Positions 1,381 through 4,050 of a stretch of 4,050 bases of DNA are shown one piece after another. The number at the start of each line of letters is the position of its first letter. The first letter of the stretch is position 1. The translations under genes and the position numbers were made by a program. The notes beneath the pieces are model-generated. The model ran no database searches. It had not been told where the DNA came from and saw only the letters and a list, made by a program, of their open reading frames with translations. This DNA is from Dictyostelium discoideum (lineage: Eukaryota), in NCBI GenBank assembly GCA_000004695.1, contig CH709152.1, positions 1-4,050 of the forward strand, read 5' to 3'.

Positions 1381-1614
1381 GTGGAATTTTTTTATTTTAT
1401 TTTTTTTTGTTTTTTTATTTTGTTTTTTTTTTTTTTATTTATTTTTTTTAATTTTTTATTTTCATTAATCCAAAAGGCTTTAAGTATCGATTTCTCTTTT
1501 ATTTATTCTATTATATTATGTTCTAATTTTTGTTGTAGACTTGTTCCGCAACTACAACATTAACTGTGTCACACCCAAACAAATAAAATTAAAAAAAAGA
1601 TAAAAATAATAATA
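1381..1614 (+). promoter_or_regulatory. Putative promoter and 5' UTR of the 1615 gene: an oligo(dT)-rich block at about 1383-1470, then an A-rich leader into the ATG.
   Basis: Dictyostelium promoters characteristically carry oligo(dT) stretches just upstream of the transcription start and an A-rich leader, which is established knowledge. Here T-runs span 1383-1470 and aaaaaaaagataaaaataataataATG precedes the start. A TA-rich TATA-like sequence sits at about 1318-1345 (tatgtaaaatgtatgtaaattcatatt). No exact TSS can be called. Confidence 0.3.
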
Positions 1615-3597
1615 ATGTCAACAAAAAAAAAAATTAAAACAGATAATAATAATAAAATATTTCAAGATTTTATTGATTTTGAAATTTTAAGATCTTTAAT
1701 CAATTATTTATTAATCAACAAAACAAATAATAATAATAATAATAATAATAAATATAAAATTAGTAAATTTTATTTACATAGAAATGAAATATTGAATTAT
1801 ATATTAGTTTCAAAAAAGTGGTATAATTTTATATCATTAACAATATCAAATAATATTATTAATAATAAATCATTTGAACATTGGTTAAAAATTAATAATA
1901 ATAATAATAATAAATCATTTACTAAAAATTATAATAATCAAAATCGATATGATAAAAATAATTTAATTTTTAATAACAAATATAGTAAAAATAAAATTGG
2001 TTTTAATAAAGAATTTTCAATTATAAAAATCAAAGAATCAATAATCAAAGATTATTTTAAATTCAATTTATTTTTAAGTAATATTACAATTGATGATTTT
2101 AAAGAAATTAAAAATAAATTTGAAAATAATCAATTAGTTTATAATAGAATTGTTGTTGATATTAAAACTGGCTATTATGGTGAAGGGAATCAAGATGAAA
2201 TTTTATTTAAAATACATGAATATGTATCAAATGAAAATTCAGAAATCATATCAAATTTATTTAAAATATTAGAATTAAATCATGATTTTATGATAATCGA
2301 TGACTTTCATCCAAAATCTAAAGAAGAGGATGAAGAGGATGAGGAGGATGATGAAAATGATAAAGGTAGTAAGAAATGTACTGAAATATATTTAAATAAT
2401 TTATTGGTTTCCGGTTATGATCTAACTATGGATGAGGATGAAGATAGAGAATCATTAAAGATATTCAAAATATTTAAAAGTAAAAATATATTTTATGATG
2501 GGTCTGGTATTGCTAGTGATATTCCAACACATGTCAATTATTCAGCATTGTTTGATCCTGATAATTCAGGTCAACAAGTTGAATCGATTAAAGTAAAAAA
2601 TGAACTTGAAGATCCTGATTTTGTAGAACCACTCCATTTAATCAAAGTTAATCAATTTAAAAATTTACATTCAATTACAATACCAATTAATTCATTTCAA
2701 ATATTATCAAACTTATCCGAAGAAATGGGATATTTTAGTATCGATTGTTTTAAATCTGGTTTTGGTCTTTCAGATAATATGAAATCAGAATTAAATCAAA
2801 TGATCAATTCATTCATTACAAGTAAATCTTTAAAAAATTTAAAAATAACATCTATTAGTACAAAAGAAGATCCAATTGATTATGATGCTTATTATGATGA
2901 AGGTGATCTTCAAACTTTTATGAATCAAATAAATGAACCTAAAGAATCATTTTCAAATTGTTTCAAACCATTATTTTCAGAATTAAATACATCAATTGAA
3001 AGAATTGAATTTGATTGTTGCGGTTTATTAAATATCAATACATTTTCAAATTTATTAAATAATAAATCAATTAAATATTTATATTTATATGATAGTGATT
3101 TCTTTTTTTCTTCATTAAAAACAAGTGATGGTGGTAGTGATGATTGTGGTATTGATGATGATGGTGGTAGTGATGATTGTGGTATTGATGATGATGGTGG
3201 TAGTGATGATTGTGATGCATATCAAAAAATTATTTCCATTAATCAATATCTATTTGAAAATATATTTTCATCACCATTAACATCAATTAGACATTACAGA
3301 ATTAAATTCAAAGAATTAGATGAATTAAAATTCATATTTAATTTAATATTAAATAATATTTTTAAATTACAATTATATTCATTAATATTTGAATTCAATG
3401 AAAACGAATTAGTTTATGAATTTGTTAAAGAATTTAAAAATTTAATAAATAATATTTCAATACAAGAACAACAACAACAACAACAAAAATCAAACAACAT
3501 AAATTTAAAAGAAATTAAAATTATAATAAATGATGACTGTTTAGAAGAATTAAATAATCCATATTTCAAAACAACAATAAAGAATAGCCCATATTAA
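1615..3597 (+). CDS. Asn/Gln/acidic-rich protein, 660 aa, single exon. It has an F-box-like N-terminus and loosely leucine-rich-repeat-like C-terminal segments. The product is tentative.
   Basis: Uninterrupted 1983-nt ORF in an otherwise stop-dense, AT-rich window. The start sits in an A-rich context (aataataataATGtca), which is typical of Dictyostelium. Codon usage is host-like (aat, caa, tta, aga, ggt, gat). The N-terminus, 'FEILRSLINYLL ... EILNYILVSKKWYNFIS', resembles the F-box consensus (LPxEIL..I...L ... LVCKRWxxLI), split here by an (N)8 tract. The C-terminal segments 'IERIEFDCCGLLNINTFSNLL' and 'FKNLHSITIPINSFQILSNL' have LxxLxLxxC/N-like spacing. It ends in TAA, followed by an A34 tract. 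Confidence 0.8.
   Translation: MSTKKKIKTDNNNKIFQDFIDFEILRSLINYLLINKTNNNNNNNNKYKISKFYLHRNEILNYILVSKKWYNFISLTISNNIINNKSFEHWLKINNNNNNKSFTKNYNNQNRYDKNNLIFNNKYSKNKIGFNKEFSIIKIKESIIKDYFKFNLFLSNITIDDFKEIKNKFENNQLVYNRIVVDIKTGYYGEGNQDEILFKIHEYVSNENSEIISNLFKILELNHDFMIIDDFHPKSKEEDEEDEEDDENDKGSKKCTEIYLNNLLVSGYDLTMDEDEDRESLKIFKIFKSKNIFYDGSGIASDIPTHVNYSALFDPDNSGQQVESIKVKNELEDPDFVEPLHLIKVNQFKNLHSITIPINSFQILSNLSEEMGYFSIDCFKSGFGLSDNMKSELNQMINSFITSKSLKNLKITSISTKEDPIDYDAYYDEGDLQTFMNQINEPKESFSNCFKPLFSELNTSIERIEFDCCGLLNINTFSNLLNNKSIKYLYLYDSDFFFSSLKTSDGGSDDCGIDDDGGSDDCGIDDDGGSDDCDAYQKIISINQYLFENIFSSPLTSIRHYRIKFKELDELKFIFNLILNNIFKLQLYSLIFEFNENELVYEFVKEFKNLINNISIQEQQQQQQKSNNINLKEIKIIINDDCLEELNNPYFKTTIKNSPY
1654..1842 (+). 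other. F-box-like motif region within the CDS, aa 14-76, interrupted by a poly-Asn insertion.
   Basis: aa 22-33 'FEILRSLINYLL' and aa 58-75 'EILNYILVSKKWYNFISL' match the two halves of the F-box consensus. Between them lies 'INKTNNNNNNNNKYKISKFYLHRN'. The VSKKW motif is recurrent in Dictyostelium F-box-like proteins. This rests on established knowledge of the family and no HMM search was possible. Confidence 0.4.
1726..1749 (+). repeat. (AAT)8 microsatellite in frame, encoding poly-Asn N38-N45.
   Basis: Direct read of aataataataataataataataat, in frame with the 1615 ORF. Confidence 0.9.
1894..1911 (+). repeat. (AAT)6 microsatellite in frame, encoding a second poly-Asn run.
   Basis: Direct read of attaataataataataataataaatca, translating as I N N N N N N K S. 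Confidence 0.9.
2323..2358 (+). repeat. Acidic tract EEDEEDEEDDEND, built from imperfect 9-bp gaagaggat-type repeats.
   Basis: gaagaggatgaagaggatgaggaggatgatgaaaatgat. The first two 9-mers are identical and the third differs by one base. Confidence 0.8.
3127..3216 (+). repeat. Perfect 33-bp tandem repeat, about 2.7 copies, in frame and encoding DGGSDDCGIDD three times.
   Basis: gatggtggtagtgatgattgtggtattgatgat occurs at 3127-3159 and again, identically, at 3160-3192. A third partial copy, gatggtggtagtgatgattgtgat, runs from 3193 to about 3216. The protein reads SDGGSDDCGIDDDGGSDDCGIDDDGGSDDCDAY. Confidence 0.95.
3463..3486 (+). repeat. CAA-repeat tract encoding QEQQQQQQ (short poly-Gln).
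   Basis: caagaacaacaacaacaacaacaa, in frame. Confidence 0.9.
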
Positions 3598-3606
3598 CCA
3601 TCAGTA

Positions 3607-3611
<5 letters not shown>

Positions 3612-3645
<34 letters not shown>
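3612..3645. repeat. A34 homopolymer immediately 3' of the gene's stop codon. It is encoded in the genome, not a cDNA tail.
   Basis: Direct read of 34 consecutive A starting 15 nt after the TAA. Confidence 0.95.
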
Positions 3646-3648
<3 letters not shown>

Positions 3649-3680
3649 AAACTTGTTTTCAAACATACTCTTTAATATTA

Positions 3681-3734
3681 ACAAATAATGTCAACAAATA
3701 AATTAAAAAACAGATAATAATAATACAATATTTT
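3681..3734 (+). pseudogene. Degenerate duplicate of the 5' end of the 1615 gene (leader plus first ~16 codons). It now reads ATG TCA ACA AAT AAA TTA AAA AAC AGA TAA, a 9-aa ORF.
   Basis: 3682-3734 (caaataATGtcaacaaataaattaaaaaacagataataataatacaatatttt) aligns to 1609-1670 (ataataATGtcaacaaaaaaaaaaattaaaacagataataataataaaatatttcaag). The blocks ataATGtcaacaaa, aaattaaaa and cagataataataata are shared, at roughly 85% identity. Weaker similarity extends upstream, where cttgtt...aacaaataa occurs both at 1540-1588 and at 3652-3687. Confidence 0.45.
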
Positions 3735-3839
3735 AAAATTTAATTTTTTTTTTTTTTTTTTTATATAAATAAATAATTTACCTTTTGATTTGGAAATATA
3801 ATTTATTTTATTTTGTTTGTTGTAGGGAATTTTCCATAA

Positions 3840-3900
3840 AATTTCACTACAGTAGCGTAGTGAATTTTATTATTTAATTTCACTACAGTAGCGTAGTGAA
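3840..3900. repeat. Two perfect copies of the 25-bp motif aatttcactacagtagcgtagtgaa, at 3840-3864 and 3876-3900 (period 36 bp). Each copy contains the dyad cactac-agtagc-gtagtg.
   Basis: Direct read. cactac and gtagtg are reverse complements, and ctac/gtag is nested inside. This is the only GC-containing island in an otherwise >85% AT intergenic stretch. Confidence 0.9.
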
Positions 3901-4022
3901 AAAAAAAAATCACTGACCTTAAATTTTTTTTTTTTTCAAAAAACAAATAAAGTTTATTAAATTGAAATTTTATTTTTTGTTTTAATTATTATTTTATTTA
4001 TTTTTATTATAATTATTGTTAA

Positions 4023-4050
4023 TTTTTTTTTTTTTTTTTTTTTTTTTTTT
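4023..4050. repeat. T28+ homopolymer running off the window edge.
   Basis: Direct read. Confidence 0.95.

Follow-up and report, generated by a model that had tools for sequence, protein, structure and literature searches.

Ninety-one nucleotides 3' of the stop codon of the Dictyostelium discoideum gene DDB_G0271418 there is a second ATG (position 3688), which the initial annotation described as a ghost second start, a repeat of the leader and first codons of the gene about 90 bp past its stop. We asked whether the resemblance behind this ghost start is genuine, from which gene it derives, whether it could still work, and how it came to lie where it does. The window, that is, the whole stretch of 4,050 nt analysed here, is located on D. 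discoideum chromosome 2 and carries the DDB_G0271418 coding sequence (1615 to 3597, plus strand; stop codon at 3595 to 3597). This is a single open reading frame (ORF) of 660 aa from a tandem family, and its product is 100% identical to the NCBI/UniRef protein DDB_G0271418 of D. discoideum AX4.

The window was compared with several other loci. L001, identified by an exact protein match, is a second D. discoideum assembly of the same locus with 10 kb on either side, and it differs from the window by six substitutions in 4 kb and a 4-nt difference in the length of a poly-A run (L001 coordinates equal the window position plus 8386 through 3611 and plus 8382 beyond). It contains three paralogues in 22 kb, designated P1 (minus strand, 659 aa), P2 (DDB_G0271418 itself), and P3 (start at 17784, 572 aa; equated with DDB_G0271424 by protein length alone), all of which start with MSTxKKIKTDNNNKIF. 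L002 is the locus of D. cf. discoideum, L003 is the syntenic locus of the wild strain ACTFIW, and L006 comes from the strain ACTFIR. The ghost start lies in the spacer between the head-to-tail paralogues DDB_G0271418 and DDB_G0271424, and its sequence is identical in the two available, nearly identical assemblies (the window and L001).

The region around the real start (1540 to 1720) was aligned with the sequence past the gene (3600 to 4050). The best local alignment paired 1611 to 1680 with 3684 to 3752 at a score of 84 and contained a single 2-nt gap. None of 500 dinucleotide-preserving shuffles reached this score (mean, 32.7; standard deviation, 4.8; maximum, 53), and the match stands about 10.8 standard deviations above them. 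Real A/T-rich sequence was taken as a fairer null than shuffles. The next-best match of the ghost elsewhere in the window, on either strand, scored 49, and the background was likewise no higher than 49 across 22 kb of genuine flanks, with the three true paralogue starts scoring 69 to 84. Finally, an nhmmer profile that was trained on 12 real 5' ends of the family and did not include the ghost matched window positions 3681 to 3743 at E=3.4e-8 and did so at E=6e-7 when 66 kb was searched. With 80% A+T in the window and repeats of the AATAATAATAAT type in the matching blocks, a chance match between A-rich, low-complexity leaders might be suspected; set against the distance from the shuffles, the real-sequence background, and a composition-corrected profile E-value of 3e-8, such a coincidence has a negligible probability, and we discarded it. 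The initial annotation had itself named shuffled controls as the test that could overturn the duplication, and the duplicated 5' end withstood them. Judged from these alignments, the ghost is a truncated duplicate of the 5' end of a DDB_G0271418 family gene.

The duplicate consists of a leader (3646 to 3687, plus strand; GTTAAACTTGTTTTCAAACATACTCTTTAATATTAACAAATA), which is the canonical promoter-proximal leader of the family with a length of 42 nt, and a pseudo-coding part (3688 to 3743, plus strand) homologous to family codons 1 to about 18. It is framed by two homopolymer runs. An A34 run (3612 to 3645, plus strand), which begins 15 nt past the stop codon and is 4 nt shorter in L001, is the probable left junction and corresponds both to the post-stop A-run of the orthologue and to the one preceding P3-type leaders. 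A T19 run (3744 to 3762, plus strand) marks the point where homology ends and is the probable right junction. As had been described from the first reading of the sequence, the ghost ORF closes after nine codons (3688 to 3714, MSTNKLKNR; TAA at 3715 to 3717) and is followed by poly-T. Compared with the family, the ghost has lost 2 nt and its frame is shifted, and the family frame itself reads TDNNNTIF and then also ends in TAA. No remaining gene body was found 3' of the ghost, where a T-run, spacer, and a transposon follow one another and family homology is absent until P3 (L001 17784). Homology, a disabling lesion, and a missing body are the marks of a truncated, unprocessed pseudogene fragment, and the ghost has all three, in agreement with its original description as a decayed partial duplicate of a promoter leader plus first codons.

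It had also been proposed that the conserved block might be a promoter-proximal regulatory module shared with a downstream paralogue just inside or beyond the window edge. Such a paralogue does exist beyond the edge (DDB_G0271424), but the ghost is not its live promoter or first exon. GT dinucleotides occur within 3688 to 3817 only at positions 3690 and 3815, so that no GT donor is available from 3691 to 3814 and the ghost cannot serve as a first exon; DDB_G0271424, moreover, has a complete leader and ATG of its own. The ghost appears to encode nothing and to be incapable of splicing, and at most it would passively supply DDB_G0271418 with an AATAAA (3697). We infer a lack of function from the sequence alone, and the ghost is probably a nonfunctional, decayed 5' stub left by partial duplication rather than a working second start.

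The stub is not derived from the leader of its immediate neighbor. When the ghost was compared with 18 real starts from five loci, P2 ranked ninth and aligned over 64 columns, all of them coding, whereas the paralogues ranked above it aligned over 89 to 105 columns comprising leader and coding sequence. The best of the 18 was identical at 84 of 105 positions and had an exact 17-mer in common with the ghost in the leader. Scores for the leader alone were 25 to 46 for the higher-ranked paralogues versus 14 to 16 for P2 and its orthologue. Alignments of the upstream regions paired the ghost leader and the A-run before it with P3 and P1, not with P2, and TTTTCAAACATACTCTT within the leader is identical to the leader of gene 2218 in L003 and to that of a second stub. 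A 'TTTAAGATTTAYGGAGAA' box, which lies further 5' of P3 and of gene X in L003, is absent from the ghost. From these comparisons, the ghost is a generic family module of P3 type, not a copy of DDB_G0271418's own leader. The claim that the gene's leader plus first codons had been duplicated thus holds for the coding part, and the leader belongs with other paralogues.

DDB_G0271418 in fact has an atypical leader. Alignments of upstream regions revealed no canonical family leader 5' of this gene, and positions 1575 to 1612 (plus strand) were found to be a degenerate tandem copy of its own codons 3 to 14 (1621 to 1655), with a local score of 41 that none of 1000 dinucleotide shuffles reached (mean, 21.9; maximum, 37). 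It is this copy of codons 3 to 14 that gave rise to the match 'aacaaata...aaattaaaa' noted earlier upstream of the real ATG. The stated identity of order between the two 5' ends is correct for the aligned segments (1611 to 1680 and 3684 to 3752) but not for 'aacaaata', which at 1578 lies 30 nt 5' of the real ATG and is adjacent to the start in the ghost.

Two other features were observed in the 5' part of the window. A near-perfect hairpin with a 31-bp stem (173 to 261), folding at -50 kcal/mol, lies inside a repeat complex at about 99 to 290, in which a unit of about 45 nt (CCAAAATTACCATATTAATTTCAGCAGCCATATTAATTT) occurs twice in direct and once in inverted orientation. The hairpin matched the Rfam family mir-7131 (RF03716) with 98.9 bits on the minus strand and 95.8 bits on the plus strand, above the gathering score of 74. 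Between it and DDB_G0271418, adjacent ORFs of 52 and 54 aa are present on the minus strand (535 to 862), a region in which no gene is called in the second assembly (L001).

The initial annotation had further surmised that the gene belongs to a locally amplified family, and this is borne out well beyond the three paralogues of L001. Extension of the same contig to 48.5 kb brought the number of members to nine, and a protein search returned 89 homologues; with few exceptions these came from D. discoideum or D. cf. discoideum, and many were truncated. Named AX4 genes account for at least 12 of them, and a single wild isolate contributes about 50 from one numbered block. A search of 5.8 billion proteins confined the family to D. 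discoideum and D. cf. discoideum. Two long gene models from other strains each turned out to be a full member fused to a 5'-truncated one. The array is a lineage-specific, copy-number-variable tandem array of the birth-and-death kind.

What the family encodes was approached through the DDB_G0271418 protein. Its AlphaFold model (pLDDT 67) shows a confident strand-helix solenoid of the LRR type over residues 147 to 660, preceded by 146 N-terminal residues with a pLDDT below 50. In a Foldseek comparison with the PDB, the best matches were the LRR parts of NLRP, NLRC4, TIR1, and FBXL3, and FBXL2 was also found; the probabilities reached 1.0 and the E-values went down to 8e-6, with TM-scores of only about 0.3. 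The members are accordingly described here as predicted LRR-solenoid (RNI-like) proteins. The gene had been called F-box-like, a label that was not borne out and is kept as a hint: a Pfam search with the DDB_G0271418 protein gave no family at E≤1 and no F-box, and an F-box was matched in only 3 of 31 relatives, the best at E=0.02. The protein does resemble F-box/LRR proteins such as FBXL and TIR1 in the alternating strands and helices of its modelled C-terminal solenoid, and an N-terminal 'ILVSKKWYNFI' is reminiscent of the end of an F-box; it is unlike them in that its best fold matches, at low TM-scores (about 0.3), are the LRRs of NLRP and NLRC4. Within the coding sequence, a unit of about 33 nt is repeated three times in tandem (3127 to 3213) and encodes GGSDDCGIDDD, an acidic insertion present only in DDB_G0271418 and represented by a gap in the aligned paralogues; the corresponding residues (505 to 531) have low model confidence. 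Overall, the family is hypervariable and without a Pfam domain, its predicted LRR solenoid is NLR-like, and it appears to be uncharacterized. A literature search on the gene identifiers and on mir-7131 returned nothing relevant.

A close known counterpart is provided by the tgr allorecognition genes of Dictyostelium, of which AX4 has 38 together with 26 pseudogenes and many of whose homologues are truncated (PMC12745789). The ghost likewise is a partial copy of a member inside an array, with a frameshift and a stop codon as its disabling lesions, and the DDB_G0271418 family likewise varies widely in copy number among isolates and contains several kinds of fragments. The ghost differs from the tgr case in being only about 100 nt long and in comprising a promoter leader and the first codons alone. 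The recurrence of such 5'-only stubs upstream of live starts is a trait that sets the DDB_G0271418 family apart. The family is not tgr; it is unnamed, is predicted to form LRR solenoids, and has no Pfam domain.

The sequence on the 3' side of the ghost bears on its age and origin. Positions 3763 to 3812 (plus strand) are ordinary intergenic spacer, orthologous to L002 12269-12347 once joined to the far side of a transposon whose left end lies in the window. The left copy of a TTGTT target-site duplication (3813 to 3817, plus strand; right copy, L001 17527-17531) is followed by the left TIR (3818 to 3963, plus strand), which begins with TGTTGTAGGG and contains two copies of TTTCACTACAGTAGCGTAGTGAA; the remaining positions, 3964 to 4050, belong to the interior of the element. 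The TTTCACTACAGTAGCGTAGTGAA repeat at 3845 to 3904 recurs in inverted orientation 5.2 kb away, just 5' of P3, and the two TIR arms (L001 12200-12345 and 17526-17381) are identical at 141 of 146 positions. The whole element spans L001 12200-17526 (5.3 kb) and is inserted 130 nt 3' of the ghost. The matches of its ORFs to rve_3 (E=6.6e-4) and rve (E=0.012) did not reach the Pfam cut-offs, precomputed matches to Integrase_H2C2 and rve were weak, and homologues of the ORFs carry PF00665 or PF13683. Judged by its TIRs, its target-site duplication, and these weak integrase-core ORFs, the element at 3818 is best described as a Tdd-like cut-and-paste DNA transposon.

The D. discoideum elements TDD-4 and TDD-5 (Ginger2/Tdd) have TIRs, a 5-bp target duplication, and a Gypsy-like integrase (PMC2836005). 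The element described here is like them in its TIRs, its 5-bp target duplication, and a putative integrase-core-like ORF with introns, a likeness drawn from published features. Its TGTTG terminus fits the TGTNR pattern reported for Ginger1 elements and Gypsy LTRs (PMC2836005). At 5.3 kb with a TIR of 146 nt, it departs from TDD-4 and TDD-5, which are about 3.8 kb long with TIRs of 260 and 297 nt (PMC2836005). It also differs from them in its partly duplicated interior, where L001 15023-15365 and 16599-16941 match the same stretch of another locus (L007). A second copy with the same TIR was not found, L007 holding only pieces that are about 68% identical. Transfer RNA genes are the targets of other Dictyostelium mobile elements, and none was found near this one.

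When the element and one TTGTT were removed, the resulting empty site aligned across the junction with the L002 spacer at a score of 60, which none of 300 shuffles reached (maximum, 50), and the interval between the aligned block and the next family ATG was 224 nt here versus 237 nt in L002. Before the insertion, the ghost ATG stood about 390 nt 5' of the P3 ATG in a spacer of about 470 nt, the corresponding spacers being 414 nt in L003 and 646 nt in L002. As a result of the insertion, the paralogue DDB_G0271424 is now 5.7 kb away. The Tdd-like element was probably inserted later than the ghost arose. The possibility that the ghost is part of the transposon or was captured by it was considered and rejected, as 130 nt separate the ghost from the TIR and target-site duplication and the intervening spacer is present in a transposon-free locus.

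For the origin of the ghost itself, a short ectopic copy is, in our judgment, the likelier explanation and is preferred to the deletion of a whole gene. A segment of about 100 to 130 nt from the 5' end of a P3-type paralogue would have been pasted into an existing single spacer, by template switching or short-patch conversion. The left junction would have been anchored in the post-stop A-run, and the right one in the A/T microhomology ATTTT(C)AAAAT beside the T-run. A 2-nt frameshift and a CAA-to-TAA change would then have accumulated in the stub, and the Tdd-like insertion 130 nt 3' of it would later have separated it from DDB_G0271424. Ectopic copying is favored because both sides of the ghost are collinear with one single L002 spacer, at the same distance to the next ATG. 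On the left, the stop codon, CCA(TC)AGTAATATT, and the A-run follow one another in shared order, and on the right, AAAATTTAATTTTT is the point from which the window is collinear with the spacer of D. cf. discoideum. The mechanism, with its template-switch step, is inferred from this one outgroup spacer (L002) in very A/T-rich DNA and may be taken as provisional.

Alternatively, DDB_G0271418 and DDB_G0271424 might once have had a complete paralogue between them, of which the ghost would be what remained after a deletion from about codon 18 into the next spacer, a second deletion between A-runs having brought the stub to 91 nt from the stop. The family is rich in truncated members and fused fragments, and the missing 'TTTAAGATTTAYGGAGAA' box is what would be expected if sequence 5' of the A-run had been lost. 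L003, whose right end bears the same G-patch gene, even carries an extra full-length member (12367-14196) between its P2 and P3 counterparts. Gene X of L003, however, is only 13th of 18 in similarity to the ghost, and the two deletions would have had to restore, by coincidence, a spacer-like arrangement collinear on both sides with the single spacer of L002 and nearly equal to it in the distance to the next ATG. We regard a deleted gene as rather unlikely, and ectopic copying as the reading to be carried forward.

Several candidates for an older or more complete form of the ghost were sought in the related loci. The ghost is absent at the corresponding position in L002 and L003. A possible older, orthologous ghost in the L002 spacer scored 41, a value reached by 41 of 500 shuffles, and is not supported. 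An intact gene at the ghost position could be identified neither in L003, where there is an extra paralogue nearby but the spacer is not alignable with that of the window, nor in L006, which has no clear DDB_G0271418 orthologue (best match, 81%). A conserved block that is not of low complexity, GAGGTAYRGTTAAGGTTTCTGACC...ATGATT, is present shortly past the stops of the P2 orthologues in L002 (11975-12010) and L003 (11982-12035); the window lacks it and has the ghost in its place.

The ghost is not the only stub of its kind. Four further 5' stubs were detected with the same profile in about 110 kb of related arrays, all oriented as the next family gene and lying 130 to 820 nt upstream of its real start. 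One (L003 9830-9889, E=4e-7) consists of a canonical leader, an ATG, and about 7 codons and is located about 130 nt 5' of the ATG of the ACTFIW orthologue of DDB_G0271418 (P2). Another (L005 6383-6453) has an internal deletion and lies about 160 nt 5' of the real ATG. In a third (L004 12028-12089), situated about 175 to 235 nt past the DDB_G0271412 stop and about 800 nt before the next start, the ATG has become ATA. The E-values of these two are modest (2e-4 and 0.02, respectively). The last (L006 17283) has 41 intact codons and lies 370 nt 5' of the next start. The stubs thus differ in state and in the length of their coding part, which ranges from 20 to 125 nt. On the strength of these profile matches, 5' stubs are a recurrent by-product of the array, and their recurrence makes the present ghost an ordinary one. 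The two 617-aa genes flanking one of the stubs (S4) were compared in case a recent duplication there revealed the mechanism, and at only 83% identity they were uninformative. Long homopolymer runs were seen elsewhere in the window as well, namely, T39 (1197 to 1235) and T25 or more (4026 to 4050) in addition to A34 (3612 to 3645), and runs of this type flank the ghost and the other stubs.

Five stubs upstream of live starts, made up of a leader, an ATG, and 7 to 40 codons, together with a DDB_G0271418 leader that copies codons 3 to 14, led us to consider that 5' stubs are over-produced in this array and that templates switch or DNA breaks preferentially at the promoter/start module with its long flanking A- and T-runs; alternatively, the stubs could act as decoy or auxiliary promoters. 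We hold this to be improbable. If true, such a hotspot, for example, a transcription- or replication-associated one, would drive gain, loss, and promoter swapping in the family.

A related proposal is that the stub has been retained for a function, as a decoy or secondary core promoter (yielding a non-coding transcript from upstream, or a uORF, by which the paralogue is tuned) or as the region in which the 3' end of DDB_G0271418 is processed. No part of the ghost is better kept than its leader, which includes the 17-nt stretch identical to the leader of a live paralogue; all five stubs (5/5) lie upstream of a real start in the same orientation, yet head-to-tail arrays produce the same position and orientation without any function, and the stubs vary in length, state, and distance (130 to 820 nt). 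The first AATAAA past the DDB_G0271418 stop is inside the ghost (3697), but an ATTAAA directly past the stop (about 3608) could serve 3'-end formation equally well. Absence at the ghost position in L002 and L003 shows that presence varies between lineages, and the transposon now separates the ghost from DDB_G0271424. Retention for a function seems to us very unlikely, and nothing in the sequence calls for it. Rather, the ghost is, as far as these comparisons indicate, ordinary debris of a fast-duplicating cluster, an unannotated pseudogene fragment of the kind to be expected there.

For annotation, the ghost is a caution, being a false start codon equipped with a promoter-like leader, and the A34 run beside it can mis-prime oligo-dT cDNA. 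Read together with the spacer and the transposon, the stub also records in what order events took place at the DDB_G0271418/DDB_G0271424 pair. The uncharacterized, Dictyostelium-specific family of predicted LRR-solenoid proteins to which both genes belong may deserve attention in its own right.
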